Position numbers and translations under genes: made by a program
The notes under the pieces: model-generated
What the model saw: only the letters and a program-made list of their open reading frames with translations
Database searches by the model: none
Told to the model about the DNA's origin: nothing
Shown here: positions 9,709-39,611 of the stretch, piece after piece
How the letters are laid out: every line of letters begins with the position of its first letter
Numbering within the stretch: the stretch's first letter is position 1
Assembly (NCBI RefSeq): GCF_964355755.1
Contig: NC_092679.1
Location: 5,734,201 to 5,798,200, forward strand
From: Antedon mediterranea
Lineage: Eukaryota > Animalia > Echinodermata
Length of the DNA stretch: 64,000 nt
Direction of reading: 5' to 3'

Positions 9709-12700
9709 ATGGAGTGCGAGGAAAGGGACGATCAAGAAGAGAATAATGCCCTTATAAGGGAGTATACAAACTGTATCCTTCAAATGGATAAAGAAGTAGA
9801 GGAGGCAGAAGAAAATGTTGAAGTTAGAAAGGATGTTAATACTGATGAAGTTAAAGATGCACAAAATACTTTAAAACTTGTTAATGATGTAAAGGAAACT
9901 TTGGTTGTAAATAAACCATCTCTTAAAACTTCTAAAGAAGACAAATTTAATCCTATTTTAACTCCTGTTGAGATTGTACCAAAAGACAGTCAGTCATCTA
10001 AATTAACGGACGTTAGTGAAAGAAATAACATTGAAGTTGCTTCTGATTTGCAAAATGATTTCCAAAAACAGAGTAAAAGTTTAGTTAGTTCTGAAGTCAT
10101 TAATGGTGATATGGAGAAAGAAATTGTGCCAGTAAACAATTGTGAAAAAAATAACGTTAATAATCCGGAATCAATCAGTCCGAAAAGACCTAGGAAGTCA
10201 CGAAAAAGTGCCATAATAGCACCAAATATTCCAATGCTTGTAAAAGAGAAAAGTGGAGATTATTTTGTTAAAGAGAATGTTACTAGAGAGCTTCCTAGGG
10301 TCGATACGAATTCAGATTTTACTTACGAGTCTTTGAACGGATCGCAGAGCGAGTTGATACAAGAAGTGATTGAGATCGAACCTCCAGTTTCGATACGTGC
10401 GTTTAAGGAAAGACCTTCCCACGAAAATTTTATTTTATATGGACTACTTACTCCAGCTCTATGTCTTGTTCCTGGAATTGATGGGGTGAGTTCTTTGCAT
10501 TGTAATAAATCTTAATTCTTCTTAAATATGAATTTAATCAGATGTCTTTTTATGAATGTTTTTAATCTATTGCTGTAAAAAAAACAGGTGCTTCATATTT
10601 GATAAGCTTTTTATCCTGTTTAAATATGTTTTTAAATAAATAAATAAATGATTATATTTAGTTGTATAAACAATTTTACAGCATGTTGGAAAATTATACT
10701 TATTTATAAATTCCTAAATCATAGAATTTAAAAAGAAAAAATAACATGTTAACAACAATGCATTAGAATTTGTTCAAAACCAAAGTTAAGAAAGGTCTTA
10801 AAATGGTACTTATCTGCAAAAGATAATATTGATCATTCCAACACTAACGTCACTGGCTACTTGTACTTTGAACGTCCATTTTGAACTTTTACTTCATTGT
10901 TTATTGCAACTTATTTTAATTTTGTTTACATGGCCTGATCATCAGTTCTAGATTTATTATTTTATTGACATTCCATGAATATTTGATTATATTATAAATG
11001 TTGTGTTAATTCAATAACAGATCTGGATTTTATTGCTAATATTTGTACATGTTTCTAATGTTGATTAAACCTATTGTTAATACATACTGTAATATTTTTA
11101 CATATTTTTACATTTCACTATTTTTTCACATATATATATATATAATATTTTTACAATATTTTTTACATTTCTGATGTTTCTACATATTGTTACATTTCAC
11201 TATTTTGTCACATTTATATTATTTTTACAATATTTTTACATTTCTGATATTTCTACATATTTTTAAATTTCTATTTTTTTAAACATATTTTCACATTTCT
11301 ACATATTTTTTTCATGTTTTTACATTTCTAATATTTCTACATATTTTTACATTTCTAATATTTTTACATTTTCACATTCTAAGATTTCCTACACATTTTT
11401 ACATTTCTAATATTTTTACATTTTCACATTCTAAGATTTCCTACATATTTTTACATTTCTAATATTTTTACATTTTCACTTTCTAAGATTTCCTACATAT
11501 TTTTACATTTCTAATATTTTTACATTTTCACATTCTAAGATTTCCTACACATTTTTACATTTCTAGTATTTTTTTGTATTTTCACATTCTAATATTCTAT
11601 TAAACATTTTCTAACATTTTTACATTTTCAAATATTTTTATTATATTTTAAAAATTATTTTAAAAACCAGCATGATGCATTGACTAAAAGCTTTACAGAA
11701 TTACATGGCGAGAATCGTGAATTGAAATTAGCGGCAGCACACATTGAAGATGCCCTCAGTGGAAGGGGAAAATATGGCAAGGCATGGTCGTATTTCAAAG
11801 ATAAATTTGGACGATGGTAAAGTATAAAATACTTTATAATTAATGGCTGGTTTTCCGCCGTCAATTTTGAAAATAGATATTTAATTATTTTTTACTTTGG
11901 CATTCAGTTTTGTATTTGTTTATTATTTAGTCCTGCAATTTCTTAAATGAAAAATTGTAAATGTAATCAGAGTCTGTGGTTTGAATTGAATCCTCGGAGA
12001 TCAACCTGTAAGTTGTTTTCTCTACACCTTAAGGACTCTTGATCGACTTTAGTCATCAAGTACAGTATATTAAAGAATAGGGTGTTCTAGTCTCGTAATG
12101 GCCCACTTGCCCGGCACAAATACATCTTCATACATCTGTGACAATGAGAATAATACAAAAATAATAATTCAATTCATCTTTTAATGGTTTAATTCATATA
12201 AAAATACGCTCAATTCTCCACCACAAGTAGACTTGCTCCAAGTCTGTATTTATTGTCTTTTTTATGTCATTCCACACGTCGTCGTTTTGATTTTTATCCA
12301 CACTCATATAATACACGTATGAAACGCCATATGTGCAAAAATATTTATATTTTTACTAATATTAAGACGAAAACTCTGTCTGGAGCTCAGACTACACCAC
12401 AAGGTAATGAAGGCACTTTTGGACAGTTTTGGACATAATTACGACGGACGTACAGATGACATACTTGATTCTTTGTCTCTAATTGACTTGATTATTAATT
12501 TACAGGTGCTTTACGATGATAGAGAGTAGTTGGTTTAATCGTCTGGTTTTGTTTATGACTGTAGTTCATCTAATATTAACATTTTTAGAACCACCAGGAG
12601 ATGTGTAAGTAGTTACAGTAATAAAGATTGTCCGTAATACAAGTATTTTGAGATTTAGGCTGTAGACCAAGTTGTGCTTTAATGTATTGTAGGCCTTCGG

Positions 12701-18700: not shown

Positions 18701-21700
18701 AAGTTTGATGTGCCTATATATGGTAGTGCTATGCTTAAATATGGTAGTGATATGACATCATCATGTCCATATATGGGCACATCACATTTTTTTGACACAT
18801 AAAGTTTGAAAGTGTAGACAAAGCTTAACATACTGTATGGAGTGAAACGATTAATCGGTGGCAGAAGCTTTATTCCTCTTTTACCACACTTTGACACAAT
18901 AATAATAATAAATCTTAATTGTTGTTTGAAATTAATAAAAATATTATGTTGAATTTTTGCTTTTCATTTCAGTGCTTTCAATAATATTGGCGTCTCTTTT
19001 TTAAGAATGTTTGTTTTGCTTTCAACTGAAAATTACCCAGTAAGTATTATACAGATATTGACTGCTTAGAGGTTAAATATAAGATTTCAACCAATCGCGT
19101 TCGCGTATTTATATAGGCTATGTAATATAATACTGTAGTGTGTTATTCCCTTTCTGTATGTATCCTGCAATACACAAAAGTAACAGATTTTATTTCAATC
19201 TATTTTTCGTCTTTTTCTGTATTTCAGGAAATAATGATTCCAGCGTATATTCCCAATCCATTTAGTTTTTTCTACTTTGGTATATATTTGTTTGTTGGTG
19301 TTTTCTTCCTCACCGCAATCTTGCTAGCTATTATTGTGGATAGTTATTGGTAAGCTAAAAACATTCTACATTTTCTTTCAAATGAGTTTTTTGTTATATG
19401 CTACGTGCTAGTACTGTACTCAGGCTCCTTCTGGCCTTAACCCCTCTCCCACTCAACTGTGGTTTTAAAATATAGTTTAAGATCTTCGCAATACAATTTT
19501 GGTCATTTTGATTTTTACCCAAAAAGCCAGTATGTTCTTATTATGACCGATTCTGATTGATGAATAAAACTAAACCAAGGCTGTTTAAAGCACCTTGGTT
19601 GGTGCTATCATTGATCAAGGGGCTTCTCTCATCCAGTGCCCACCTTAGTCACCAAATGTACAAATCCAATATAGTTCACTAACAATATTTGACATGAAAT
19701 CTGTGTCTGTAGGGAATTTGCCAAAAAAGATGTTAAAAAGGAAAGGTCTCGAGAAAGAGCAGAGTTAGCCAAGGCATGGAATCTCCTTGATCCTTTGGGA
19801 AGTGGTCGTCTGGACGTCGATGACAGCAGGTTTCTGAAACTTTTCAATATGCTCCGGCCAAAGGTACGGTCTGCTTGAATTCCCTCCTTTGGTTGGTCGA
19901 TCACAGTGGCATACATCAATATTATATCTGCTTGAATTAGTATCTATAAATACCTAGTGCTTTCAGAATCTTGACATCATTTGAACAGGATGTTAGTGGA
20001 AACTACTGTTGTTATAATATGTAAATTTGGATTTGTTTATAAAAAAATATAATTCTTGTGAGTATTGGAGTCAGGAATGATAGAATAAACTGTCTCTCTC
20101 AAATGAATTTTGCCAATCAGAAACTGTTTAGTATATTTTGCTAAATAATATTATTTCGTTATGATTTTAATTTTTTCAGAACACAGAACAAATGAATCTT
20201 CAGTTAATAAATTATTTAGATAGTAATGGCGATCAAGAGATTGATTCTTTTGAGTGGACAATAAGACTTTCTGAAGCTCTTAGCTTTGAGTTTGAAGAGA
20301 CAAAGAATGATGACATTGTGAGTATTGATTAATGAGCTTCTATAGATTGGCTAGAGGGCAAACTCCAATATTGATATTGCACAATATACTCTCAATATGG
20401 CTCTGACACCTTGCAATGATTTTTAAGTGACACTTTTAACATTTTGAACGGCGTTTGTAATGGCATGTGCTTCAGGGTGTTGGACACTGAATTATGGGGT
20501 CGTGGTTCGAATCCAACTCTCGTCGCATTGCTTGTATCCTTAGGCAAGGCACTTTACTTACATTTGCCTCGCCCCACCCAGGTGTATTAAATGGGTACCC
20601 GGTTAGATCAAGACACAACTTTGCCCTGATTACTAGCTGCATTATGGGAGTATGTTTCCAAATTGGGGTAATAATGCTTGTAAAGCGCCTTTGAGCATGA
20701 TTACTCATGAAAAAAGCGCTATATAAATGTGGTATTATTATTATTATTATATATTATTATTAGTTATCCGCTTAGTAGCGGATAACTCCTTGTAATCGTC
20801 CTGTTTCATCAAATTTATTGGTTATCCGCAACTTAGTAGCAGGATAACCCATGTGATTGTAAATATCTTTTTTTTTCATCATCATCTTCTTTGTTCTTCT
20901 TTCTTTCCCTGATTTTTGTGAGCAGCATATCCCCTATAGCTTATGAATATAACTTTTGTATAACTTTGTCATTATATGGGCATTTACCTGAAGTTGTGCA
21001 CCTCCATATTTTGAATGACGTCAGAGTTGCGCAACGTGACTTACGCGCGATTTTATGAATTTCAATGATTGATCATAGGATAAAAAATAAAAGTCATTTT
21101 GAATTGACACTTAGTGAAAATTTAAGTTATATCAAGGTCAAACTTTCTATGGATTAAAAATGGCATGTTTTACAAGAAGTTACGCGCGCACGCGCATTTA
21201 AAGTTTCAAAATGCGCAAAATAAATTTCTAATCAACTTTCTACGCTGATCATGACATTTTAAGCATGTCAAAAATTTCTTGAATTATGATTTTACAGCCT
21301 TTCTTAGTCATTTTAAAAAAGATTTACATCATTTCAAATTAAAATGACTTCATACGAGCACGTTGATTTAGACCATTTGCGCGCGTTTTAGTTGAAAAAG
21401 TTACAAATATTGTCAAAATAATGCCAATTTTGAATCTATTATAGCTCCTCAGGATCATCCACGACACCCAATTTTTTTAATTTAATATGTAAGCAGATAT
21501 GTTGTAGATATGAATTCATGCAGAATCTTTACCTCTCGGATGTTATGACGGCATCGTATGGCCACACGAATGTAAAATATAGGATTTTTTACTCTTTCGT
21601 TATTGCTCATCACATTAAATAGAGCGCATCTCACTTTTACGTGCCCAAAATTCTTCAAATTTGTTTTAATGTAATTATTTAGATAATTATCTTCTAAAAT

Positions 21701-24700
21701 TGTTATCTTTATATGTCAATTTGATGACGTCATTGTGTTAATAATTGGATTTAAAAGATGGGTCTCGTAATTTTGTCTATGCTACACTGTATATAACATA
21801 TACAGTGTATTCTGTAAATACTGTAACATGATGTATGCTGCAAAATATTTACAATTCAGCACTGTAAAGATATTTATTTCATGTCATAGGATGGCATAAT
21901 AATTGTCGAGATTCATATAGTTTAAAGTATGTGCATGTTGCGTTTGCACGGATAACCCGAACTCGTCAAAGTGACGAGTTCAAATCTAGTTTCCTGTATT
22001 ATACTTCTTTCTTTCTGTCATTTTTGTGCGTCGTGTTTCTCTAAAACTTGTAAACAGAACATATCGTAACTTTGTCAACATATCGAAATTTACGTGAACT
22101 TGTGCACCTCCTATTTTTGAATGACGTCAGAGTTGCGCAACGTGACTTACGCGCGATTTTATGAATTTCAATGATTGATCATAGACTAAAAACCAAACAT
22201 AATTTTGTTTTGACACTTTGTGAAAATTTAAGTCATATCAAGCGCAAACTTTCTATGGATTAAAAATAGCATGTTTCACAAGAAGTTACGCGCGCACGCG
22301 CGTTTAAAATTTTAGAAAGCGAAAAATCAACTTCTAATCAACTTTCTATGCGTTTCATGTCATTTTGAGCATGTCAAAAATTCCCACGCGCGCGAAAATT
22401 TTTACGCACGCGGTGCACACGTAGCGTTAAAAACATATTTTTTTCGCGTGATTTATGTTTTTTCAGCCTTTTCTAGTAATGTTACCAAATTTTAAACAAT
22501 TTCGACTTAAAATTACGTCATACGAGCACGTCGAATTAGATAATTTGCACGCGTTTTTGGTGAAAAAGTTCAAAAATTCGTCAAAATTATGCCTATTTTT
22601 AAACATTCATAGATTCTAAACTACATTGGGAACTTTTTTTTAATTACATATTCTGGAAGTTGATGAGTTGTAGATATCGGATCATACATTAATATGGCTA
22701 ACCGGACATTGTGACGTCATCGTATGGCCACGCGAATATAAAATATAGGATTTTTGTCTCTTTCGTCATAGCTCATCACATTTAATAGAGCGCATCTCCA
22801 CTTATTCGTTGTCCATTTTCACCCCGATTTTAATATATTCTAGGTCAATCAACTATCTTTTGCATGAATTTAAATTTTTTTAACGTCATCATTCCTACAA
22901 ATTTAAATTACTTTGGTCATTAATTTCATCTTTACAGTAAATTTTAATCTGTTATAGCTCGTAAGAATAAAATGTGATAATCACGATTAAAACGTTTTCA
23001 GGAAGCTATTGTATTGTAGATACAAAATCATGTGAAAATTGTGCCAATCGAATGTTGTGACATCATCATATGGCCAGTTATATAAAAAAAGTCGTATTTT
23101 CATCTTTTGCGTTATATTTCATTACATTTAAAAGAGCGCGCATCAATATTTCACGTATTCAAATTTCTTCTACACGTTAATATGTTGTTGCTGAGATAAT
23201 TTCATTCTGAAATTTCTACTTTTGCATTTCATTTTGAAGCCGTCAAGATGTTAAAAATTACAATAAAATACGGGTCCCGTAATTTCACCTATTTTACACT
23301 GTTTGTGATATGTATACAGATTGTACTGTGTATACTATGTATATGACACAAAATAACAGAATTCAGAAATAACATTTCATATTCTTCAGTTCAGGTCATA
23401 ATGCCTTAATATTTTTCTGTGTGCAATATTCTAACGTATGACGTGCACGTGGCGTTTGTCGAGCGGATAACTAACTCGTCAAAGTGACGAGTTTCATGTC
23501 TAGTTATTAATTGTTTTTGCTCGCTAATGAAATGGTGTTACAAACATTGTGGTATATAAATTTTTATGTATAGGAAAAGTTTCCAAAATGGTTCCAGGCA
23601 ATATGTCGAACAGCACGAACAATTGATCGATCTGTTGCATTCTCCAAGACTATTCTTGTGCTGATATTTATTCACAGGTAAATCTACGTTTTAGAAAACT
23701 GCCTTAAAACATTTATTTTAATACTAAAGAATTAATTAATTCCCTGACCACGATCTTGTGAAAAGTGTGATGTTTTTTTGTACATTTGCTTTTTACAAGT
23801 TCATCAATACCTTCATGTTTTTTTTTAAAAACTCAAAAATGTACATGAATAAAGTGCATTGTGTAGGATTGTAGATAGTAATAATATAAATCATTTTGTT
23901 TGACAAATCCAGTAAAGAATTTACTCACAAAAATTTGCATTTTGTTTTACTTGCTTCTGCATTTTCGTTTACTTATGCACTGAGACACTAGTTGCACTAA
24001 TATCAAATACAAAATTAAGAAACTATACCTTGTTTTTACAGCCTACTGTTTTGTATTCGCTGGAAAGGACAAAGTATTGAGGAGATATTTGCAATACAAA
24101 TTACTAAATCAGTCATTGTTAGCATATTCTTTGTAAGTATGCATCCTTAAGCCACTGCTACATAATGGTACAGTAATATACTTTCAACATTAAGCATACT
24201 TACTTTCCAAGGAGTTTTCAATGATTGGTGAATGATCAGGAACTGAGTTATGATAAGCAGATTGTGAACCCCTTTTGGTTTGTGTTACTGGATGTAGTAT
24301 GATGGCCATTGAAAGACTGATTTGTGGACTATGATATATTTTAGTAACTTGTTTGGTTTGTGTTACTGGATGTAGTATGATGGCCATTGAAAGACTGATT
24401 TGTGGACTATGATATATTTTAGTAACTTGTTTGGTTTGTGTTACTGGATGTAGTATGATGGCCATTGAAAGACTGATTTGTGGACTATGATATATTTTAG
24501 TAACTTGTTTGGTTTGTGTTACTGTATGTACTATGATGGCCATTGAAAGACTGATTTGTGGACTATGATATATTTTAGTAACTTGTTTGGTTTGTGTTAC
24601 TGTATGTACTATGATGACCATTGAAAGACTGATTTGTGGACTATGATATATTTTAGTAACTTGTTTGGTTTGTGTTACTGTATGTACTATGATGGCCATT

Positions 24701-27700
24701 GAAAGACTGATTTGTGGACTATGATAATATATTTTAGTAACTTGTTTGGTTTGTGTTACTGTATGTACTATGATGACCATTGAAAGACTGATTTGTGGAC
24801 TATGATATATTTTAGTAACTTGTTTTGTTTGTGTTATACATTGTTATATTCTTTGATAATTTTTTTAAATATTTATGTCAACTTCATCACTGTTTACTTG
24901 ATGCAATGCAATAAAGGAAATAAATAATTATACAAAAAACTGTATACTCAAGTCTATTATACATGTAAAAAGTTATACCATCCATGCCAAACTCAACTGC
25001 CTAAGTTGTATAAGTTCAATGTTGTAAAACCATCTGTAACCTTAAACCAAAACCAAGTCTCTTAACCTTTTTGTACTGGTACTGTTATTGACCTTGAGTG
25101 GTCATGCAGGATTTGAACACAAGATCTTGGGATTAGTAATGATTACAACCAACTTACGATGCCACAAACTGTCCATACCATGTTTCAATTTGTTGTAGAA
25201 AAAAGTTACGTTGGATGTCTATGTTGTATAACCACTTGCACCAACTCTGTCCTTTCTATACTAATATAGACATGATGATGTCATATCACTACCATATTTG
25301 GCCATACCAATACCATATTTGGCCATATCACTACCATATTTAAGCACATAACACTTTTTTTTGTCTCACTAGTTTTATAGTGTAGACAGAGCTTAAGTCT
25401 CTCAAGTTTTTTGTACTGGTACTTGGTCATGAGAACACTCCTAGTTCTGTGACCAAGCATAGATTTAAACCCAAGACTCTATCATTGCTAATGCTACCTA
25501 CTATACAGTGCCACTACTATTGGAACATATCCAGATTTAAATTAATTTTTTTGAAGATTGAATTGGCGCTAAGGATTATTGGAGAAAACACAAATTTACT
25601 TGATCCTGTAGAACTGCTCGATGTAATGCTTCTGATTACTGCTATTGTTTCCAACCTTCTTTGGTACATTGATGATATGGACGACGCGTTTACGTCACTT
25701 CACACTACGTGCACAGTTGTCTCGGGCCTTGCGGTGTTCTTTAGACTTGGATTCAACCTGTACCAGGTACGTTATACTGTTATACACATTATTTTGTACT
25801 TGTCCGAAATATACAATGTACAAAATAACATGTTTATCGTGAAAAGGATGCTATAAAAAACATTTATTATTATAAGCATATAGAATATCAATTTCAATGA
25901 TTTGTGTATAAAATTTATGTTTTTTAGACGAAGAAGCTGATTATACTGTTTAAAAACAGAATATTTCCAGTCATGTTTGACCTTATTGTTCTCGTCTTCA
26001 TCATAATGTGAGTTTTTCTTTGAGAATTCTATGAAAAATGTACAGTGGTGGTGTTATAATTATGGTATTCTTAATCCTAATACAATGTGTTTATTATTTT
26101 CAATTGCTGAGTGTCATTAAATTTATTTTAATTTCTTAAAATCCACAGTTATTTCTACGCCATAATTGGATTTGAAGCATTCAGTAATAAAGAGCGTGAC
26201 CCTACATACTCTTCCAGTCACTATGACTACTGCTGTGGGCTTGGCTTTGATACCTTTTCGTAAGTTGCCTGAAGAATGTCTCTCAAAATTGTCTCTTTCA
26301 AGCGGCTATCTATTGCTCTTTATCAAGGAGTTCTATATGGAAACTCACATGAAGCAGACATAGGAGAGTTTATAGACTATTTCCTAAGTAATAACACCAA
26401 TATTTTTTATAATGGCATCGCTTCTTTCCGTTCTATTATTTTACATCACTTAGTTAACCTGTAATATCATTTTCCTATGTTCGATCTTGTTTTTCTGTCT
26501 GTTATAAAGAATTATATTTTTAATGTTAAGTAGTTTTTCAGTCGCTTGCAACGCGACTCTATAGCTCACTATGTCGGTCGGTCAGTTGGTTGGTAAACAC
26601 TAAATTTGAGCACGTGACTGCAGTCATGTATATGGCCTTGTTTATATTAAGATTTTAACCAGCCTGTTTAGTGGCGATGATTAGCTGTGGGTTTGAAATG
26701 ACTCTGAATTTGAGATTCCTTCCCTCAACCCCTTTTAAGTTTGTAAGAAGGTTACTTCCCAAAAGGTCCTATTCTGTAGTGAACACATTTCAAAGTTTCA
26801 GGTTCAGTAAGATTTTGTTGAAAACTACCGTTATTGTCTTTTTCAGGTGTGCTCTTCTTGTAATCTTCCAAATAGTGACAACTAGCAACTGGCATGAGAT
26901 TATGAACTCTGTAAGTACTAAAATATTACATTAATCGTTAACATCTTAGGATGACAATAATAGCTGAATGATAACAGTTTTATTCAAAATTATATCACTG
27001 TTAACCTCTGTCTACACTATAAAACTAGTTATGACAAAAAAAGTGTAATGTGCCAAAATATGGTAGTGATAAGCCCAAGTATGGTAATGATATAACATCA
27101 TCATGTCCATATATGGGCACATCACATTTTTTTGTCACATAAAGTTTAATAGTGTAGACTGATCTTAAGGATATGACAATGATAACTTAATGATTTTTAA
27201 TACAGTATATTCGTTTGGATTATACATTTAAAAATACATTTGTATTGTTTTTTTTTATTTTTAGGTCATGAAGTCAGTATCTGATGCTACATGTCTCTAC
27301 TTTGTGTCGTGTTATGTTGTCATCAACTTAGTTGTGATGAAGTAATTATTCCACTGCATTCAATAATTAAGTTCTGTCCACACTATCAAACTAGTTGGAT
27401 AAAAATAGTGTAATGTGCCCAAATATTGTAGTGATATGGCATCATCGTGTCCATATATGGGCACATCACATTTTGTTGTCACATAAAGTTGAACTCGGAA
27501 CCATCTGATTTATAAACCAATCATGTTAAACACCAACCTACACTGTTACTATACTAGGCTGAACAATTCTAGTAAAAACTGTATTTAGTCAAATTCTTAA
27601 AAAAAACCTATCCTAAACTTTGTTTTGCTACCACAATTTTGAATTTTTAAATCTATTTTTTTTACCAGCTTGTTTGTTGCCATAGCAATTGAAGCATTCA

Positions 27701-30700
27701 ATAAGTTAGGAACAGAGAAGGAATTGGAAGCCGCAGAGAAGGAAAGTGAAAATGAGACACAGGAGGAGGAGGAGGATGAAGAAGAGGAAAAGGTTAATAT
27801 TAGTATTTTTATTATTAGTAATTAGATTTATTAAATAGTTTCATGACAATCGGAAATATACTGTGAACGTTTGATGAAGAAGGAAGTTACAGATTTGAAG
27901 ATATGACAAATGAAAATGTACAGAAAAAAAGCAAAGAAAATAAATCTTCTTGTCATTTAATCGACATTGAAAATTGAGTCTATACCTCCATGTTGGCTTT
28001 TCCTGTGCGCTTGGATAATTCTGATGAAAGTTGAAAACATGGTGAAGTTATAATTGATATTAATACTGTTTATTTCAGGGTAAACTGAATTCTGCGAAGA
28101 CGTTCCTCAATAACATATTTGAAAGCTCCCGAGTATGTATTATATTGTCTTTTATTATTAAAAATTTTCATTTTATGTGAGGTGAACAAATTTCTTTTAT
28201 TATCAGTATACATACAGTTTTACTTGAATATTAATATTTTTTTCTAGCTGGCAAATGTAATATGTAAGTTCTGTCTACACAATCAAACTTTATGTGACAA
28301 CAAAATGTGATGTGCCCATATATGGACACATTGATGTCATATCACTACCATATTATTTGGGCATATCACACTTTTTTTGTCAAACTAATTTTATTGTGTA
28401 GATAGAGCTTTACAGTACAGTAAATCCCCTCATTTACATACGGCACGAGCCTGCTGCTGTTTGTAATTCAAAATATTTGTAAAATTGAGGTTACATACAG
28501 ATTTAAGCTATATACATCGTATCACATAGGCATCATAGACGGGTCAAAGTTTTAGGCCTAAAAACAGCCACACGTCTTGGTCCGACACAATGATAGTCCA
28601 ATTCTTTCTCATTGTACCTTCTTGTGTGCTCTCAATTTGTTTGAGTAAAGTTTGTTTTAAGGGTTCGTATTTATAAATAAAAAATGAGGTGTATCAGAAC
28701 AAAAATATTATGCGTTTATCAGGTGGAAGAAGAAAAGGAGCGTAGTGTTAGACCAACAAATAGTCCTCGTATGAGGAGGCCGAGTAGAGTTGTAAGTAAA
28801 CAATGTCAAAGGTCATTGAACATCGCATATATAAGTAGTGATAGATTCAGTGCACTCATAATCACAAGTTATGGATATGACAAGTTTGAATTTCATTTAA
28901 TTATGCAGTAAGGCATGCTTTTGAACATTATATCATTGCAATATATGTAACGCACACCAGCCAAATCTCACATCTTAATATGCATGCTCTACACATTTAG
29001 ACAACATTTGGTGAAATACAATTTTTTCTGTCACATATGTAGTTACTGTACAACATTAAAAGTAATGGGTCATTACTACAGTATAATGTAGCCATGCTTG
29101 CTACACTATCGATTTTACCATACACAAAATCATGGGTACCAACTAGAACCAACATCTTGAACAAACTAAAGAAATGCACCATCTTTTTTACCAACATCAA
29201 TTACAATCACAGCCAATCGTTGCAACTGCAGTGATAGCATAATTCCCCTCCCCAACCCCAAATAAACTTCAGTTACAGTTGAAACTTTATTCAACAATCA
29301 CTAGTAAACAAAAACAAGTAGTAAGTAAGAAGTAAACTGGTCACTATCAAATTCATTGCATTAATTCTACCACAATCTAATTGATTAAATTTGAGTAAGC
29401 AACCAATGCATGTAATAAATTGTTTAGTGGTTCATTTTCAGTTTCATTCATGTTTGTAAAATTATTTTTCACAAATTATAATTATTTATAACCAGTAATT
29501 TATTTTTGTTGTGCAATATTATAGTGTGTTAATGTTTGCATATTTAAATGTTTAAAATATTATAAACATTATATAAAATCATTCACTAGAATTTGTGTTG
29601 CATTTCATTGAGTTTCCATAATTATTAACATTTGATAATTCTTTTATTTTTACAGTTTAATTTTCTACATCCTTTAATATTTTTTATATAGAGCATTGTT
29701 CATCAAAACCCTGGCATGTCTCCATTTGTGATGTCTCCAGTGTTAAGTCCACAATTAAGCCCTACTACAGTAGTTGAAGAAGATGCAAGTCAGAGTGTAA
29801 GTGATCTGTTGTATTATATAAATCCAAAAGAAAATTACTAAAAAATGACAATGCTGTGGGTGTCAGTGACTGAATCTCAATGGAGATACAAAAAAATAGC
29901 GAAAAGCTACATCAAAACGATAAAGTAAAACAGCCAGAAAAATTATCAGAGCTTTCGGGCAACACTAGACCTTCACAAGTATTACGTTGCACTGGTTTTA
30001 ATTATACACTTATAACATGCAAAAAGGAAGTATGATATAATGTGAACATTCTATTGCAATTCAGTATATAAAACAAAATTGAAGTTTCATGTTGTTTGTA
30101 TACCCATCAGTGATGATATTTGTATTTTAGCCCAATATGTGTTGATTGTTGAATTAAATATAAACATTTTTCAATAAAGTACACCTTCAAAAAGGCAAAA
30201 TGAGATAAATACAGGAATTTGTTTTATATAATATTGTTTACTATTGGAGAACTTGTTATTTTTTATTTTATTTAAATGAATACTTTATCATAGGATGAAG
30301 ATACTTCAGATTTAAAGAACATGACACCAGAAGAAAAGAGAGAACACAGGATAAAGAAAAAAAGAGCAAAAAAGAAGAAGAAAAGGTTGAATAAAACTAA
30401 TCCAAAAACAAAGATCATGGTGGTGACTGCTTATCGGGGAACTAAAGACCAAGAACTCGATCTTATTGTTGGAGATGAAGTTGAAGTAATACAAAAGGTA
30501 AGCCTTAAGATTATTGAATTGCACACAATGTGCACGTTCTTACCTTTAAGTGTTCTTACCTTTAAGTATTCTCACCTTAAGTGAATCAGGAGGCAAGTAC
30601 TCATATTGCCTCTTCTCTTGGATATGTAAAATTAATTTGTCTACGATTCTTGTGTCAAAAGAATTGTCTCTTGTTTTTGGTGTTGTGCCTGGATTTTGAT

Positions 30701-33700
30701 AGTGTCTTGGAGTGGCCTCTGAGAAGGTGACCTCCTGGTTTGTGACGGATGGAAAAGAAGGTTGCAACGTCCAGGTCATCAAATCCATTTATTATCTTGA
30801 AAGTTTCAATCATGTCACCGTGGTCTCTTCTCTGTTGCATGGTACGGAGTCCTAATCCATGTAGCTTTTCGTCAGGAGTTCTGGTACTAACTTGGTGGCT
30901 CTATTTTGCACTTTTTCAATCCCACATAATTAGTTTTCACATACTTAAAGGAGAGTCCTGTTTGATCCAGCACCTCATTCAGTTCCTCAGTGGTTTTTAG
31001 AGCAATTATAGTAACAGTCATTTGTCACAGATCACCTGAATACATTTATTTAACTTCTTCTTTAAGCTCTGTCTAAACTATCAAACTAGTTTGACAACAA
31101 AAGTATGATGTGCATAAATATGGTATTGATAATGTGCCCAAATATGTCAGTGATATATATCATGTCCATATAATGTATGGAATTTCGTGTATAAAAATGT
31201 TTATTTTGTTCACGAACTAAAATGGTATAAATATATTTACAACTACAGCAAGATGATTGGTGGGAAGGCAAGATCCGAGGTCGTAAAGGATGGTTTCCAG
31301 CCTCCCATGTTAGAGAGGTAAAACGAAAACCTGTAGAGCAACCTGAACTGCAAGAGAGGCAAGGTTCCAGCCCACCAGTTGCTGCCTGGACAGATAATCA
31401 CAGAAACAGCAATCCAAACTCTAGTCTTGTAAGCATTGCATTTGTCAATTACAAAAACAGAGTGTACAATAACAATATATACTTCTTTTTTCTTCTTTCT
31501 TTCAAATAAAACTTAAACATTTGACAAAAAAATCTATCAAAAAGAAGAGACAAGAGCCCTAGAAGTTAAACATCAATTGGATTATTCCAATCGACACTTG
31601 TGGCGGGCAAGCCATGTACAATAAATGTAGTAATGAAGAAAGGAAAAAACAACATAAAGACAAATCAAAACGCACACAAAACAAACGAACAGGAAGCATC
31701 AAGAAAATGAACGACACAAATGGTATCGTGGTATAATAAAACAATTTGTAAAATTAAATCAATTCCTCCGTTTGAATTATTAAGATAAAGTTTTTTTTTC
31801 TTTATTAAGCCTCTTACAAGTCAAGCCAATAATGGCGTCAATCGCTCACCAAATCCACCGGCCCATCGTAATGCGGCACCACCACAACGTAAAGTAGGGC
31901 CACGTGAAGTTGTGACGGCAATGAATGCTGTTCCTAAGTTGAAAGTGAAGAACAAAGGTGATTGGAGACGAGAAATTCTTGGTGACATTACGGTTATGAA
32001 TCCAGAAGAGGTAAACAATTTGTTTTATCTGGTAAAATCTCTTAAAAAAATGAAAATAAGAACACAATTCATGCACAACCAGACATATATTTTTACATCT
32101 AAAGTTTCGAAATACATTTCTGATTTCCAATAAAATATCTAAATCGTAATTCCTCTTGGATATACAAAAACATCCCAATATAATAGTACATATACTATTT
32201 AGACCCCACTACTGAACCCCTTTATGGGTAACTAAATATGATTCATTTCATGCCTCGATAAATTTTAGCTTCAATTTAATTTCTTTCTTAGATGAAGGCG
32301 TTGAATAAGATTCTTCGATCAGGTTCACTTGGTGGGGTAAGTAACTGTTATATAATCACACTGGTTTTCACTTTCGTATTATTGGATATAATGTTGCAAA
32401 CTTTCTAGCTGTTGCAATAGTAACAGTGAGTGTATTTTGAAAACAAATTTCACTTCAACATGCCCAATTATGCCCCAGCCAAAAGTGGAATAATTTCAGA
32501 TTATTTGTGCATCCAGTATCTAAACACAACACCTAATGAATCTTGGTTTAACTTTTTTTTTACACTTTTCAGTCTTTACCCATCAAGAAGCAATCCCTGA
32601 TGTAAGTTTCTGAATATTTATTTCTTGTTAAAGTGTTAAATTGAAACAAAAAATATATAATTAGGCTTCAACAATGAAGTTTGCTCCTAAATGGGAGAAA
32701 AAGATTTTATTCAAGCATACCACACTGTAGTCAATAAAACATTCCCACAATCTTATACCTTTTCACATCTGCATAAATTGTTACAACTTGTAACCAGGTT
32801 TGATCTCCTAATTTATTACACGTTTTCATACACGCACACGCGCCCCTGAGAAATCTTGCAGGGAAAGCGTATTTGCGCGCTATTTGATTACTATGATTGG
32901 TCAGTTTAATACCAGGGCAATACAAATGCGCGCATTAAGAACTTAGAACATCTCGGAACAAAACAGACCTCTCATCAGTGTGTTTTTCTGTGCAGTCTAG
33001 GGAGATTTTCCACAAAATTGTGTTCACACTATGCAAACCTGGTTACAAGTTGTTACATTTTACAGGTGTGGAAAGGGTATTAATCTTACTTAATTAAACG
33101 ATTCTTCCTTAAGTTAGTCTTTTCAATTAAATGTTTAATTTGATCAGATCTGATATAGTAGAGGAAGAAGAGGAACCAGCTGCACCTGTGAAACCTGATG
33201 AACCAACTTCGCCATTTACACTTCCAATAGTAAGTGCATTTTTGTTGATTCTCTTGTTCAATTTAAGATCCTGCTGCTGGTGTTCCAATGCCTAAATAGT
33301 TGCGCTCCCAAATACCTTAATAATAATTATTGACAATCAGGGAGAGAAAGCGAGAACTAAGGTCTAGTCATCAGGTGCTACTGGACATTCCGAGGAGCAA
33401 ACATAGTTGGGGAGATTGGACTTTCAGTATTGCTGGACCTAGGCTCTGGAACCACCTACCTTTGAACATTAAGCAAACATCATTATTGAGCACCTTTAAG
33501 TAACTACTCAAAACTCAGTAGTTGTTGAGCGCCATGAGCAATGACTGTTGGAATGGCGCTATATAAATTGAACGATAGATGATTTGATTGATTAATTGCA
33601 TTATTTATGTATGACATTTAAATGTCAAGTCTACCAACTGATTTGTATACTTAAACCACATTGATTGACAGCCATATAAATCAGTCTTTTTTCAGCGTTT

Positions 33701-36700
33701 TTATAGTACAAACAATATGTTTATCAGACCTGTGGCCTTGAATATTTCTACTTCACCATCAAAAGAAGAATTAAATTAATTCTGCAGAAAATAGAATGCT
33801 TATTAATTTAATTTTAATTTGTCATTTATTAATAGTTTAACTTTGAAAGGGCGCCAACCTTAGATTTTGTAGAAGAGACAGTAGAGTCAGAATCTGCTGA
33901 TAAAACAGGTAACTATGACATTTTCCAAATATGGTATCGTTTTTTTAATCTCTAGCCATCCAGTGGTATAAACTTGGTAATACCATGGAGAAATAAGTTA
34001 TTTCTCCATGGTATTATGAAAAAAAAATTTACTAAATGTTTAAAAGAACAATAATGGTTGTTCATTGTACTCGAAACGAATGTGTATTGTGTTATTATAT
34101 CGATACATAATACGACCTTTTTCTAAATTCTGGATCCACCGCCACAACACTTATGTGTTTACTATACAATATGTCAAAATAAATTTATTCCTAACAAAAA
34201 TGTTCCCTCTAACATTTTTAATAACATAGACGACGACGATGATGATATGAAAGACGCAGAGTCGCTCATAAATCATATTGGTAAGTTTGTTGGTGATTAT
34301 TGCTGCTACAAATAAATGGATGTGGGAATGCTAAACGTACGCTAATGTATATTTGTGCATCATGGGATTCAGTGAGGGATCATGGGAATTGTGTAATAGC
34401 ACCATTTATAGGCTTTCTTTGTTGTGCATGTTTTGGTGTCAAATTGAAAATTATGATTTTTTTTTATTTCAGCACGTAAATATGTTTAGTTTTGAAAATT
34501 GAAATTGTTTTATAGTGTTGTTTTTTTTTTATTTCTGTTGACAATACATTATGTCTATTTATTGAAACAAATATCGATAGAGGTCAAAGTTCAATGGGAA
34601 AATTGCATATGTATGACTATTTCTATGATTTATTTGTTACAAAACTCTCCCAAAACCAGACTTTTCATCCAAATTTGTATCTAATATACAGTATATGGGA
34701 GGTGGCAATCATCAGGGTTTTTGTGCCAGATAATTGAATAAAATAAATAAATAATAATGAATGTTTTTGAGTGTGATGGTACAAATAATTTCAAAAGGTG
34801 AAAGATGGAGGTTATATTTTCATAAGACCTATTTCAGAATGAATACAGGACTCACCTTTTACTCTACTGTTGTTATTGATTAACTCCAGCTTCCGAAGCT
34901 GAAATACATAACTTGTATGTTATTATTTGTTTGTTTTCATTTATTTATATTGGGTAACCTCTTCAGTCAAAGACTGGTCTCCCAGTGGGACTAGCAATGA
35001 TCAGTGGCTGTAATGTACTATAGTTCACCAGGGTAAAGGCCCATTTACACTAGGGCGATAACGATCGACGATAAAAGATAAATATGCATTTTCCATACCT
35101 AAAACAAAGAATTTAAAAAAGTTTTCATCCTAGAACTATAGGATTATCATCTATGCTGCCTTTGATGAAAATAATATTTCCACACGTCCAGTCAAATGAC
35201 GTCATGATTAGTAAGAGCAATAATATCGTTACAATACAACGATTTTATTGTTTTATTGATTATGACGTCATTTGATTGGATTTTCAAAAATATTATTTTT
35301 ATCAAATACAGCATACATGATTGTCCTATAGTTATAGAACGAAAACTGTTCTAATTTCTTTCGTTTTATCCAAGAAAAATGCATGTTTATCTATTTATCG
35401 TCGATCGTTATCGCCCTAGTGTAAATGGGCCTTAACCCTCTACTCATCTCGGAAGATATACTACAGTACAGTAGCTTCTTTAAAGTGCACATGAGCTAGA
35501 TGTATACACTTGACCTGTTTATACAGTCCTTATCCGACAAGACTCGTTCTACCACCAGAACCATGGAGCGAGTGAGACTCAAAGCCTTGCCGATGTTATG
35601 ACTACGTAATTACGGTTCCACTGTCTCAGCCACTCACTCAGCCGAATTTAAATAATGAAAAGATTTAATTTGGTGGTAAATCCTTGTTTGAGTTCCGTCG
35701 TCTTGTCAGGAATGAAAAATGAAACTAGTAATTTTTGTTTAGATACCCTGACTGTAGAAACACCAGAAATACCGTCAGAATTGAAAAAGAAGAAACAGAA
35801 AGAGAAAACAAAACCAGGAGAGATGCCGGCCTGGATGAAAAACTTTGTCGCCAGTAAGCAAATCAATATTGCTGCCGATCAGTTTGACGAAACAGATCTT
35901 GACAAGGAGTCAAATAAATCAGACAAAGATCCAGGGTATGTAATGGAATAATATTAATTGAGGTAGGAGGGGTTCATGGGGGCATGGTAGAAGTGAGTAA
36001 AATCTCACAAATTTATAGAAATTAAACAAGTTTATCAAACCAATTTTTATCTTAAAGTGTAGGTTCATGTAAAAAAAGGTTACAAATTTAGCTGTTGAGT
36101 CGAAAAGTCATTCTATTGACAGTTTGCATAGTTCCATGGCAATAGTGAAAGGTTGCTATAGTACAACATTATGTTTAATGTGATGCAGGTTCCATTTGTG
36201 CAATAATTGTCAGTTCACTACACCATTACTGTATGTTTAATGTGATATAGGTTCTTCCTGTCATATCGCTTCACCAATATGTTTAATGTGATACTAAAAT
36301 ATGTTGTTTTATTATAGACCATTATTGCTTAGCCCCTTGATGCATCATATTCCCCTGTTTTCTTGTCTCAATATGCCATTTAATGTCAATACAACGCATA
36401 CACGGCTCCCTGGGGAAGTTTTCCATCGTTATATTGCAGCATTTATTTGTCAAATAATAAAAAATACATTTTGGAACAATATTGCTGAAACTCAACTTAT
36501 CAAATCTAGGTCAAGGAGTTTAAAAGCATTATGCTAAAATGGTGTACATTATATTATGCTAAATTATGGGTGAAATAAGTTTTTTATTTGTATACCTTTA
36601 ATATCCTAACACAAATTACAAAAATGACAATGCTGTGGGTATCAGTAGCTGGATCTCAAAGGACATGTAAACAAAATAAGCAGAAAGTTAAATCAAAATG

Positions 36701-38196
36701 ATTAAACAAAAATGCCTTATACAAAACATGTACACGATATAATAACATTTTATTTTTAGTGAAAATAGAAATCACCAGAACATTCAGCAACAATATTTTG
36801 ATTTTAAATTTTTTTTTAAATAGATTCTTTCTTTGCTTTCAATGATGGAATTGTCATAGTTTTTTTTTGTAATTATGGTATGACCACGGCCAGCCATTTT
36901 AAATGGTGTTCTACCCCATATGTGTAAACCGTCAAACAATATATGCCACATCAATATTTTGATGTTTGGTGTCTGAATGAAATGATTCAACGTCTGTATG
37001 TCTGTACGTTAAATGTCTGTAGAGTTTCTAAAAGTAACTTTGCAGAGAAGAAGAGCTACTCAAGTGTCGTGGAATAACAAACTGAGGTTTACGGTTACTA
37101 GAATCAAATAGTTTAATCTACTTTAGTTTAGTATTCGTTTTTGATTGATGAGTAACAGATGTTTGATCTTCAGGGCTTGTTTATGAACTTTGATTTGAAA
37201 TTTCATCTCTTGAAACAATCCTCATCTCAAAAACATTCATCTCAAAGAAGCCCACTGGGCCTCTTTTCGAGGTTTTACAGTATATACTGTCATAATCGTT
37301 TAACATGATGTCATTTTCTCCTCCTGTTGTCAGGGTTACAACCATAGTCCTGTATATGTGTTCCGCACTTAGTCAAATATTATTTCCTATAAATATTTCT
37401 AAACATTTATTGATTTCCCTTAAAGATGTATTGTCCCCAAAAAAACATGAAAAATGAAGATTAATTAAATCAGACTTTGAATAGGTTATTTTGCACTTTT
37501 AATAAAGTTAATCACATCCGTAGAAAAAAAACTGAAAAAAAAGTAATGTTTTCACTTATAAAATAACATAATAAATGGTTAAATTCATCCAAAAATACAT
37601 TGGCTGGCAGCCAATTTGACAATTTTTTGCTTAAAATTACATTTTTTAAGGTAAATACATTTTTTTTAGATCTAATTTTATCCAAAAGTGCATAACTATT
37701 ATGTGACACTAAAATGGCATATTCAACAAAAAAAAAGTTAAAAATTATTTTTCAGGGGGGACATCTTTAAGTCATAATTTCAGTCAAATCATAGTACTAC
37801 ACAGTGTATACTGTGTATGTTAGTAAAATGATTGTCTCAAACCTTTCTGTAAGCACTGGGTCTTATACAAAGCCCAAGGTTAGAGTTACAATTATGAAAG
37901 TATCATTTAATATTATTATTGCCTACTTATCTTTACCAATTTGTAATTAATTAATACCCTAATTTGTAAAATTTTACTTAATATTATTGGTAATCAGTAA
38001 ACAATTTTTTAGTTATTGTGATCGTTGTTGTTGTTTTTTTTTATTTACTGTACATTTATTTGCGATTTTTAACTAATATAACAATGTTATATAAAAAATA
38101 ATAGATCTAAAAGTATATGACACTATCTTCCTCAGGTCTCTGCTTTCGTTACCAGGAATGGTTGAAATGGACGACGTTAGCACCGTTCAAGATTAG
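9709..38196 (+). CDS. Two-pore-channel-like (2x6TM) cation channel with EF-hand linker and C-terminal SH3 domain, ~1386 aa, 32 coding exons
   Basis: Exons, all GT-AG and phase-consistent with no stops, summing to 4161 nt: 9709-10485, 11671-11816, 12506-12604, 14426-14554, 17008-17080, 17189-17299, 18358-18497, 18973-19039, 19228-19349, 19713-19863, 20180-20317, 23574-23677, 24042-24132, 25557-25766, 25928-26007, 26149-26259, 26847-26910, 27265-27341, 27669-27792, 28079-28132, 28723-28791, 29692-29796, 30294-30497, 31249-31428, 31810-32010, 32292-32336, 32573-32601, 33148-33229, 33836-33908, 34230-34280, 35743-35935, 38136-38196. TPC hallmarks: LAAAHIEDALSGR, HLILTFLEPP, PFRCLR, MFVLLSTENYPEIMIPAY, LLAIIVDSY, YFYAIIGFEAF, FQIVTTSNWHEIM, VMNLFVAIAIEAF. 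Small tail exons could be alternatively spliced. Confidence 0.88.
11085..11640. repeat. AT-rich intronic minisatellite (TTTTTACATTTCTAATA-based, ~52-bp higher-order unit)
   Basis: Repeated TTTTTACATTTCTAATATTTTTACATTTTCACATTCTAAGATTTCCTACA blocks run up to the exon-2 acceptor. Confidence 0.85.
13082..13742. mobile_element. Kolobok-like non-autonomous element (TTAA target duplication)
   Basis: TTAA|AGACGTATTGTCC ... GACAATATATCT|TTAA. Related copies at 37424-37766 and 62448-63042 share internal sequence. Confidence 0.7.
14599..14980. mobile_element. MITE with ~75-bp TIRs
   Basis: ATAGAGTATCACGATGCTGACGTCATAA...CAACCAAAAATGCGTTCA at the left pairs with TGAACGCATTTTTTGGTTG...TTATGACGTCACACCGTGATACTCTAT at the right. 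Confidence 0.8.
15976..16958. repeat. 100-bp tandem repeat (~8 copies) followed by a 53-bp deletion-derivative array (3+ copies)
   Basis: ATTAAGAGAAACCGTTCACA recurs exactly every 100 bp from 16081 to 16681. From 16781 the unit is CATGATCAATGGTGAATGTGAACCTACAAGAGTGGCTGATCATGATCAGTAAG. Confidence 0.95.
18055..18327 (+). mobile_element. 5S rRNA-derived SINE (SINE3-like) or 5S pseudogene with unrelated tail
   Basis: TACGGCCATACTGCGTTGAAACACCGGTTCTTGTCAGATCACCGAAATTAAGCAACGTTGGGCCCGGTTGGATTCTGGATAAGAGAC...GGGTGCTGTA follows the 5S rRNA consensus with many substitutions and no oligo-T terminator. A ~150-bp body follows and ends in AGAAGAAGA. Confidence 0.75.
18665..18825. mobile_element. Harbinger-type MITE family A copy (TIR AGCTCTGTCTACACTATCAAAC)
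   Basis: ~140-160 bp, TAA/TTA flanks, internal CCCATATATGG/ATATGGTAGTGAT motifs. At least 12 copies occur in the window. Confidence 0.8.
20450..20760 (+). mobile_element. tRNA-derived SINE with CORE-like segment and L2-type 3' tail
   Basis: B-box GGTTCGAATCC, CORE-like TCCTTAGGCAAGGCACTTTAC, CCACCCAGGTGTATTAAATGGGTACC, and a tail GTAAAGCGCCTTTGAGCA...AAAGCGCTATATAAAT followed by (TAT)n. Confidence 0.8.
20761..23503 (+). mobile_element. Outer non-autonomous Helentron/HINE-like element
   Basis: 5' palindromic subTIR TAGTTATCCGCTTAGTAGCGGATAACT. At the 3' end, AGCGGATAACTA is followed by hairpin AACTCGTCAAAGTGACGAGTT and terminal CTAG|TT. Confidence 0.75.
20816..21989 (+). mobile_element. Inner related Helentron/HINE-like element nested in the outer one
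   Basis: Has its own 5' GGTTATCCGCAACTTAGTAGCAGGATAACC, 3' CGGATAACC, the same hairpin AACTCGTCAAAGTGACGAGTT and CTAG|TT. Its body is a diverged homologue of 22000-23500. Confidence 0.75.
24275..24836. repeat. 78-bp tandem repeat, ~7 copies
   Basis: Unit TTGGTTTGTGTTACTG(G/T)ATGTA(G/C)TATGATGGCCATTGAAAGACTGATTTGTGGACTATGATATATTTTAGTAACTTGT. It produces the spurious 26-aa periodic ORF. Confidence 0.95.
25243..25393. mobile_element. MITE family A copy
   Basis: Right TIR TAGTGTAGACAGAGCT|TAA and internal CATATCACTACCATATTT repeats. Confidence 0.7.
27004..27165. mobile_element. MITE family A copy (a further partial copy at 27370-27491)
   Basis: CTCTGTCTACACTATAAAACT ... AGTTTAATAGTGTAGAC. Confidence 0.75.
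28267..28410. mobile_element. MITE family A copy
   Basis: AGTTCTGTCTACACAATCAAACT ... GTGTAGATAGAGCTT. Confidence 0.75.
30535..30960 (-). mobile_element. CR1-clade LINE 3' fragment (end of ORF2 plus tail)
   Basis: Minus-strand peptide QQRRDHGDMIETFKIINGFDDLD...LRGHSKTL...RQFF matches the RRxRGD[LM]IE[TV][FY]KI...RGHxxKL...FF C-terminus of CR1 ORF2. It is followed by a hairpin GAGGCAATATGAGTACTTGCCTC and short tandem tail units. Confidence 0.8.
33340..33600 (+). mobile_element. L2-clade LINE 3' fragment
   Basis: Translates as FSIAGPRLWNHLP..IKQ...TFK, the typical L2/CR1 ORF2 end. The tail GAGCGCCATGAGCA...GGCGCTATATAAATTG precedes (GATT)n. Confidence 0.7.
34948..35645 (-). mobile_element. 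Full-length tRNA-derived Deu/Nin-domain SINE interrupted by a MITE
   Basis: Reverse complement of the copies at 49240 and 62652. It keeps the 5' head GGCTGAGTGAGTGGCTGAGACAGTGGAACC and is split at TAA by the element at 35037-35432. Confidence 0.8.
35037..35432. mobile_element. PIF/Harbinger-type MITE with long TIRs and TAA target duplication
   Basis: TAA|AGGCCCATTTACACTAGGGCGATAACGATCGACGATAAA ... TTTATCGTCGATCGTTATCGCCCTAGTGTAAATGGGCCT|TAA. Almost the whole element is an imperfect palindrome. Confidence 0.9.
37424..37766. mobile_element. Kolobok-like non-autonomous element
   Basis: TTAA|AGATGTATTGTCCCC ... GGGGGACATCT|TTAA. Homologous to 62448-63042 and, inverted, to part of 13082-13742. 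Confidence 0.75.
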
Positions 38197-38446
38197 CCGG
38201 ATTAGGAAGCCGGACGTATCAAAATGTCACACCACTGGTTAGTGCAATCCACTAAACCACTGGTCATTTTAAGTGGCCATTAACAAATATAAATGACCAA
38301 TTCAAAATGACACATGTCATCAAACTCGGTTATAATATTATTACGTCATTACTATAAAATGGTACTTTGTTGTGATGAATGTAATGAACATCTGACCCAA
38401 AGCCAATCTGAGGACCCTACGTTATGTGTATGAAACTAATTACCCA

Positions 38447-38792
38447 GGGTACATCACTGACCACTATATGGGTGTGTCTCTAACCACCATATGTGGGTAC
38501 ATCACTGGCCACTATATGGGTGTGTCTCTAACCACCATATGTGGGTACATCACTGACCACTATATGGGTGTGTCTCTAACCACCATATGTGGGTATATCA
38601 CTGGCCACCATATGTGGGTACATCACTGACCACCATATGTGGGTACATCACTGGCCACCATATGTGGGTACATCACTGACCACCATATGTGGGTACATCA
38701 CTGACCACCATATGTGGGTACATCACTGACCACTCTGTGTGGGTACATCACTGACCACCATATATGGGTACATCACTGACCAACATATGTGA
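38447..38792. repeat. 25-bp/48-bp minisatellite in the predicted 3' UTR of the channel gene
   Basis: GGGTACATCACTGACCACCATATGT units; the first three are extended by GGGTGTGTCTCTAACCACCATATGT. Confidence 0.9.
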
Positions 38793-39611
38793 GTGGTGTA
38801 GCTGCACTGTAATATAAACACAATATTATTCTCTCCAATCGTATGGTTCTTTCCAATTAAGTATTCTATATACAGACCATGATCTTTCATCAGTTATAAA
38901 TTCCATGATTATTACAGCAATATATTATATCCACCACCTTGATTTTAAAATGAGCACACATGCAACAATTATGTCCTCCAACCAATGTATAAATTATGTA
39001 ATATATGATTTAATAAATATGTAATTGTATGATTTGTATAAAGCCCATTTTTTATAATTATGATTTACCAGTTACTGTGTTGATGTCTGTTGATTTATAA
39101 TTCGGTCGGTGCAGGAGGAATTCTGGGTTTAACTAACCCAATTTTTCTAAATTAAAACTATTTAGCATGATTGAAAATGACAAAACTGGGTGAAATATAC
39201 CCATTTCCACCCAGTTTACCCTAGTTTTATAATTACCTGTTTCCTTTAAAATTGAAAAAAATTCATCTCTTTCCAACAATGTTATTTGAAACCAAATTTC
39301 CGTTTATTTATGGTGAAGGACAAAATTACGTTGAACTTACCCAACGTTTCATACGTTATCCTCACACTTTTTCAAGGTAGTAAGATGTCAGTTTGGTTTG
39401 CCGACACTGATCATGGCATAGTCACGTGATGTTTCCTTTAATTTCCTAAATGTTATATGTATTCGATTATCCTCAAATAAGAGGTAATTGTCTTACACCC
39501 ATATTTCACCCGGGATAGGTTGTGGATGTTGGGTGTTAAAGAGATGTGGACACCAGATTTATCAAGGACGGGTTGTGAATGATGCGTCCACAGCCATGCA
39601 CTAAACTCTTA

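Follow-up and report, generated by a model that had tools for sequence, protein, structure and literature searches.

According to the accessible text of two reviews, animals have three two-pore channel (TPC) paralogues, and the acidic-filter channels known as TPCR occur only in protists (PMC12839299, PMC7312350), with the 2026 review among them giving TPCR genes as absent from animals (PMC12839299). TPCR is described as a clade of unicellular eukaryotes with Cav-like filters (PMC4278181, PMC6259924, PMC8490419), and the diatom clade TPCL as one without EF-hands (PMC11085791). The EF-hands of mammalian TPCs are reported to have no Ca2+ ligands, whereas plant TPC1 is Ca2+-activated (PMC6424560, PMC12839299). 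In TPC2, the Asn of filter II gives the channel its Na+ selectivity, filter I lines the pore via backbone carbonyls, and an Ile at position R3 of S4 is the change behind voltage independence; in mouse TPC1, the C-terminal region wraps around the EF-hand domain (PMC6424560).

The channel gene described here shares with the two-pore channel superfamily in the broad sense its two 6-TM repeats in one chain and an EF-hand-type linker, and additionally encodes an SH3 domain in a long tail. An SH3 domain within the channel chain is, to our knowledge, unusual in this superfamily. By the window we mean the whole 64-kb stretch of Antedon mediterranea DNA that was analysed.

Gene model and transcript evidence

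The splice-site model of the gene has 32 exons, with all 31 introns being GT-AG, and encodes 1386 aa, one open frame running through all 32 exons from the ATG at 9709 to the TAG ending at 38196. Its features are as follows.

9709..38196 (+): whole gene; a pair of 6-TM repeats joined by an EF-hand linker, then SH3 and a long tail
9709..10485 (+): exon 1; acidic N-terminus, for the most part disordered, with low pLDDT in the amphioxus model
11671..11816 (+): exon 2; conserved pre-S1 helix (AAAHIEDAL)
12506..19349 (+): repeat I, S1-S6, by gene model and Pfam; 7 exons (12506-12604, 14426-14554, 17008-17080, 17189-17299, 18358-18497, 18973-19039, 19228-19349)
19022..19039 (+): filter I, STENYP; Glu511 occupies the Cav high-field-strength position, register taken against Cav rows
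19713..20317 (+): inter-repeat linker with EF-hand pair (exons 19713-19863, 20180-20317)
20219-20254 (+): EF2 loop, canonical in Antedon mediterranea; EF1 is degenerate
23574..27792 (+): repeat II, S1-S6, by gene model and Pfam; 8 exons (23574-23677, 24042-24132, 25557-25766, 25928-26007, 26149-26259, 26847-26910, 27265-27341, 27669-27792)
25713..25757 (+): repeat-II S4; R5 is the only arginine
26878..26895 (+): filter II, TTSNWH; Ser replaces the Na+-selecting Asn of TPC1/2
28079..29796 (+): S6-SH3 linker, three phase-0 exons (28079-28132, 28723-28791, 29692-29796)
30327..30398 (+): polybasic helix directly before SH3; conserved across members from sponges to amphioxus, with choanoflagellate members showing it too
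30408..31323 (+): SH3 domain, split across exons 30294-30497 and 31249-31428
31930..32318 (+): tail motif A, conserved in the family (WRREILG...NPEE...LN), exons 31810-32010 and 32292-32336
35817..35855 (+): tail motif B, likewise conserved (GEMPxW), within exon 35743-35935
38136..38196 (+): last coding exon and stop, by gene model

The sequence-only reading had placed two SH3 exons at 30294-30497 and 31249-31428 and had followed an open frame into them from the second S6 through phase-0 exons. We find both exons at these coordinates and in these frames, and in the 32-exon model the junctions leading from the second S6 exon (27669-27792) to both SH3 exons are phase 0. The same reading had proposed one gene of about 1390 aa holding channel plus SH3, and this agrees with the length of the model, with the RefSeq protein and with the finding that Ion_trans and SH3 are both present in 29/32 family matches, the other three being two partial sequences and one from Styela. 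The last 30 codons of exon 1 form the start of the family-conserved stretch. A further short exon considered at 13305 was left out of the model, as the frame joins without it and it is absent from RefSeq.

RefSeq protein XP_071963410.1 (Antedon mediterranea, "uncharacterized") equals the gene model in 1252/1252 residues from Met135, and a homology search with one linker exon as query returned a protein 100% identical to that exon. Because the model start at 9709 lines up with the start in Anneissia, the RefSeq entry is probably short at its N-terminus. A Pfam scan of XP_071963410.1, for which two Ion_trans domains, an EF-hand and an SH3 domain had been predicted, detected Ion_trans twice (E 1.9e-45), SH3_2 above the curated cut-off (E 1.8e-11) and EF-hand_7 with a score under that cut-off (E 2.9e-4).

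Sequencing run X1 was counted as RNA on the basis of a software guess and its own spliced contig. This contig, of 1345 nt, was placed on 30294-30495 and 31810-32008 with a spacing of 384 nt, the exact spliced distance of the model, and extends 530 nt upstream of 30294. Under the gene model it would span 26223 to 34230, including the repeat-II pore and S6, and the depth value of 18.6 is found at 26839, 29790, 30385, 31361 and 33847; the reach into the channel is only inferred, from the length of the contig, and 26839 lies 8 nt into an intron. Another X1 contig (depth 8.9) at 34228-34958 (+) runs from exon 30 into the next intron, where a stop follows 10 codons on, and may represent a retained intron, pre-mRNA or a short isoform without tail motif B. 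X1 contigs were also placed on 38135-38512 and 38699-38973, which are likely 3' UTR. In transcript-derived ORFs of Oscarella pearsei (a complete ORF) and of choanoflagellates, channel and SH3 are joined, so these transcripts do not stop before the SH3, as they would if it belonged to a separate gene.

Elsewhere in the window, we observe a degraded 5S rRNA copy at 18055-18175 (+) in an intron of the channel gene (Rfam 54 bits), probably a pseudogene or SINE head, and, 2.7 kb downstream of the gene, an intronless 134-aa ORF for a lipocalin / fatty-acid-binding protein at 40938-41342 (+) (Pfam E 5.9e-14), possibly a retrocopy. Short frames on the minus strand at about 5400-6900, one with a weak UPF0489 match (E 0.007), suggest a head-to-head neighbour gene. 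Long minisatellite tandem arrays at 15990-16960, 24240-24840, 38440-38790 and 51300-51900 lie in introns, in the 3' flank and downstream, and yield spurious repeat ORFs.

Channel core, EF-hands and SH3 tail

The filters and S6 helices of both repeats are the most conserved parts of the family, and the pore residues are almost invariant from sponges to amphioxus, which, as far as sequence can indicate, fits a working pore, as expected. Glu in filter I is kept in 24/24 family rows, and the filter II position is Ser in most rows. Filter I of TPC2 presents backbone carbonyls to the pore, so the side chain of the family Glu may point away from it. The AlphaFold model of the amphioxus member has as its best structural matches AtTPC1, mouse TPC1 and human TPC2 (E 8.5e-17 to 5.4e-14).

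With respect to voltage sensing and lipid binding, the register of the repeat-II S4 was fixed by a TPC2-like reference that carries Ile at R3, as does human Ile551. In this register, the S4 has one basic residue in 24/24 rows, R3 and R4 are uncharged, and R5 is the sole arginine in 21/21. At the PI(3,5)P2 lysine positions of the IS4-S5 linker, the Antedon mediterranea protein has Gly, His and Asp. Across the family, the positions of Lys203/204/207 are basic in 5, 0 and 2 of 21 rows, compared with 5/5 TPC1/2/3 references at all three, and the Lys204 position is His in 21/21. A conserved lysosomal sorting signal was not found in the family rows, in which dileucine-like motifs are present but not conserved.

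EF1 is canonical in only one of the 24 family rows and EF2 in 15, with Asp at EF2 loop position 1 in all 24. EF2 fails the canonical test in the remaining 9/24, including all three sponge rows and the sea urchin, and Ca2+ gating may therefore not be universal in the family.

The canonical PxxP-binding groove of SH3 domains is formed by two N-terminal aromatics, a Trp, a Pro and a C-terminal Tyr. Over 24 family rows, we observe that the Trp is kept in 19 and the Pro in 24, that the first aromatic is found in a single row, and that the last Tyr has become His in 20; two ligand-groove aromatics are thus replaced in nearly all rows (by Thr/Ala and by His), which makes ordinary PxxP binding doubtful. 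The domain had been called a textbook SH3, and the description holds for its fold, which is detected by Pfam and predicted for Antedon with a pLDDT of 94-95 and an rmsd of 0.6-1.5 A to the SH3s of ITSN1, myosin-I and betaPIX; it does not hold for the groove. The proposed role of the SH3 as a protein-recruitment module is accordingly worded here as a possibility: it may recruit proteins.

Tail motif A is present in choanoflagellate members and, weakly, in SH3-less members. In the full-length amphioxus model it has a pLDDT of 72-87 with an added strand, versus 61-78 in the Antedon tail alone, and, because these are two models from different species, the difference is only a weak hint that motif A may fold back onto the channel in the manner of the C-terminus of mouse TPC1. 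When the Antedon tail was modelled by itself, motif A was not placed on the SH3 (pTM 0.36); a predicted complex of channel core and tail motif A, for which the alignment was not used, scored 0.01, which speaks neither for nor against such contact.

Family range and tree position

The family search scored 7,983 candidates and gave 32 matches. Among animals, named members were found in homoscleromorph sponges, in cnidarians (corals, jellyfish and Nematostella), in Lingula, Owenia and two nemerteans, and in amphioxus, a hemichordate, the tunicate Styela and each of the five echinoderm classes. The Styela SH3 is decayed, being below Pfam detection and detected only by the family profile. The names of the 32 matches include no vertebrate, arthropod, nematode or mollusc, which suggests loss of the lineage in these groups; it is only a suggestion, because no more than 7,983 candidates were scored. 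The core of the Antedon protein is 40-82% identical to those of 19 named animal members versus 17-23% to canonical TPCs. An Atlas cluster of 70 members, 96% of them with SH3, is auto-named TPCN1. Two second paralogues were observed, P0078 (Lingula), in which the SH3 is kept and the filter Glu lost, and P0094 (Owenia, partial), with no detectable SH3 and no filter Glu.

A profile search revealed a second tier of two-repeat channels, with 20 named matches, 10 of them choanoflagellate. Four of these 10 relatives carry an SH3 (Mylnosiga, Codosiga, Salpingoeca infusionum and Hartaetosiga); the basic helix stands ahead of the SH3 in at least three of them, and tail motif A comes after it in three. 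The lineage is, on this sequence evidence, older than the sequence-only reading had supposed, with SH3-bearing members in choanoflagellates. As basic helix, SH3 and motif order are shared, a single origin of the fusion is suggested, and, given a single origin, these sequences suggest that the channel-SH3 fusion is older than animals. The clade also includes SH3-less members, namely five choanoflagellates, Sycon, the second Owenia gene and a haptophyte.

As references for the tree we used TPC-type frames from metagenome contigs, chosen by filter pattern, four of which were assigned to TPC1, TPC2, TPC3 and plant TPC1 by best PDB match; filter I of the references is non-acidic by construction, because the filter pattern was used in their selection. 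Three incomplete rows were removed and 14/80 aligned rows were thinned as near-duplicates, and the tree of 66 rows x 484 columns was computed with IQ-TREE (LG+C20+F+G4), with Cav half-channels as the root. A 32-row clade (100/100) unites the 16 named animal rows, themselves a clade (98/96), with choanoflagellates and others. The canonical TPCs, among them TPC1/2/3 and plant TPC1, make up a separate clade (100/99). In this tree the family groups neither with TPC1-3 nor with plant TPC1, and repeat I alone and repeat II alone each give the same split (35 rows). An AU test (32 rows), run with the tree already known, rejects a grouping of the family with TPC1-3 (p 1.5e-75). Both results support the earlier proposal of a separate TPC-related subfamily. 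Each of the 10 named choanoflagellate relatives shares or falls inside the 32-row clade; support for joining the SH3-bearing ones to the animal rows is no more than 92/91, and the tree has several long branches. Two-repeat channels of other protists that share the family filter fall outside both clades. Two further two-repeat channels, P0120 and P0156, have an N-terminal cyclic-nucleotide-binding domain and group with three other two-repeat channels (100/99) outside both TPC clades.

No paper describing a TPC-SH3 protein was found in a literature search that excluded most subscription papers, and hence no sign that this architecture is already a characterised family; the channel-SH3 family is real, conserved and apparently undescribed. 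PMC7312350, whose accessible text does not mention SH3, reports TPC homologues in a sponge (six) and in sea urchin (three), and some of the sponge six could be unrecognised family members. Sea urchin XP_011679870 belongs to the SH3 channel family, SH3 region included; according to the accessible part of PMC5584759, a 1,022-aa starfish egg/early-embryo transcript covers 99% of this protein and was counted as a third TPC. With the family present in sea urchin and starfish and matched in a starfish egg transcriptome (PMC5584759), studies of Ca2+ signalling in eggs may have missed it.

Proposed mechanism and comparison with known channels

The reading that we favour, with a probability of about one in two, is that the protein forms dimers and works as a voltage-independent cation channel that is permeable to Ca2+ and controlled by Ca2+ in the cytosol. 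A dimer built as in TPCs would have a Glu/Ser/Glu/Ser filter ring, and such a ring would make the channel less Na+-selective and more Ca2+-permeable than TPC1/2. No voltage sensing is expected because R3 and R4 of the repeat-II S4 are gone, and PI(3,5)P2 is not expected to be required because the basic cluster is missing. The signal that opens or tunes the channel would most likely be Ca2+ on EF2, as it is in plant TPC1, which would give a Ca2+-induced Ca2+ flux. The polybasic helix, the atypical SH3 and tail motifs A and B probably tether the channel to a membrane or partner and set its site, and its location would by default, in analogy to its relatives, be an acidic organelle.

That the basic helix, the SH3 and the two tail motifs keep their order from choanoflagellates to amphioxus could also mean that gating is achieved mainly by a protein partner or by the channel's own tail, with SH3 and motifs acting as a built-in auxiliary subunit and the EF-hands being structural. 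Cav beta and STAC provide the auxiliary-subunit parallel for such SH3-type tail gating. The 9/24 rows with a non-canonical EF2, the arrangement of the mouse TPC1 C-terminal region around the EF-hand domain (PMC6424560) and the better order of motif A in the full-length amphioxus model than in the isolated Antedon tail point the same way, although the last is a weak hint, drawn from different species. SH3-less clade members (Owenia P0094, Sycon, five choanoflagellates) show, however, that the SH3 is dispensable for the lineage as a whole, and we consider tail gating unlikely, while still the most serious competitor.

Less probable still is a leak channel, either always open or weakly gated, possibly in the plasma membrane. 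It would fit the absence of both known TPC gating inputs (voltage sensor II and the PI(3,5)P2 site) and of a conserved dileucine signal in the family rows, and NALCN and Cch1 are likewise without S4 charges (PMC6259924); the conservation of the EF2 loop across the animal range nevertheless suggests regulation, and TPC-fold relatives are mostly organellar (PMC12839299, PMC11085791). The degenerate voltage sensor, degenerate EF1 and large interaction tail would also suit a non-conducting or silent subunit, serving as a membrane scaffold or as partner of another TPC, but this is improbable, given that conservation is highest in the filters and S6 helices of the two repeats. That two adjacent genes were fused by annotation, to which the inferred placement of the upstream exons of the X1 contig would leave room, or that the protein is a mere fast-evolving TPC1/2/3 paralogue, is highly improbable in view of the 29/32 matches with both domains, the complete sponge and choanoflagellate transcript ORFs that hold channel and SH3, the AU rejection of nesting and the gap between identity within the family and identity to canonical TPCs.

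Beyond the Ca2+-regulated channel that we favour, a broader reading is possible, if on balance doubtful: a fourth animal two-pore channel that would be the metazoan TPCR, Ca2+-activated, Ca2+-permeable and independent of voltage and PI(3,5)P2, with its SH3 gained before the animal-choanoflagellate split, the channel itself lost in vertebrates and ecdysozoans and expressed in echinoderm eggs. If true, this fourth channel could carry part of the organellar Ca2+ release in echinoderm eggs that is now credited to TPC1-3. A fourth animal lineage with a Cav-like filter Glu, with members in sea urchin, starfish, amphioxus and Nematostella, would moreover offer an expressible two-repeat channel from an animal for testing how Ca2+ selectivity came about before the duplication to four-repeat Cav/Nav channels.

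Compared with known systems, the SH3s of intersectin, betaPIX, CIN85, SHANK3 and STAC2 have the fold of the Antedon SH3 (rmsd about 0.6-3 A, 28-38% identity); the Antedon domain differs in sitting within a channel chain and in having two groove aromatics replaced. Unlike four-repeat Cav/Nav/NALCN channels, the Antedon protein has two repeats, followed by a stop-terminated tail. TPC1, TPC2 and TPC3 (6c96, 6nq0/8ouo, 6v1q) share 2 x 6-TM and the EF-hand linker with the family at about 20% identity, and TPC2 is also voltage-independent, via loss of R3; in contrast to TPC1-3, the family lacks the Na+-selecting Asn, the PI(3,5)P2 lysines and R4, and has a filter Glu, a Ca2+-type EF2 and the SH3. 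The best two-repeat match by sequence (E 1.7e-30) and by fold is plant TPC1 (Arabidopsis; 7fhn, 5dqq, 5e1j), which resembles the family in its EF-hand with Ca2+ ligands and in having neither the PI(3,5)P2 cluster nor the filter-II Asn, but belongs to the canonical TPC clade, keeps R3-R5 in the repeat-II S4, has no filter-I Glu and, at about 730-750 aa, no SH3. With TPCR, the family has in common two repeats, a position outside TPC1-3, a Cav-like acidic filter residue and choanoflagellate members, a likeness judged by published descriptions, which in their accessible parts mention no SH3 and give animals as being without TPCR. Compared in this way by description, the family is probably the animal branch of TPCR.
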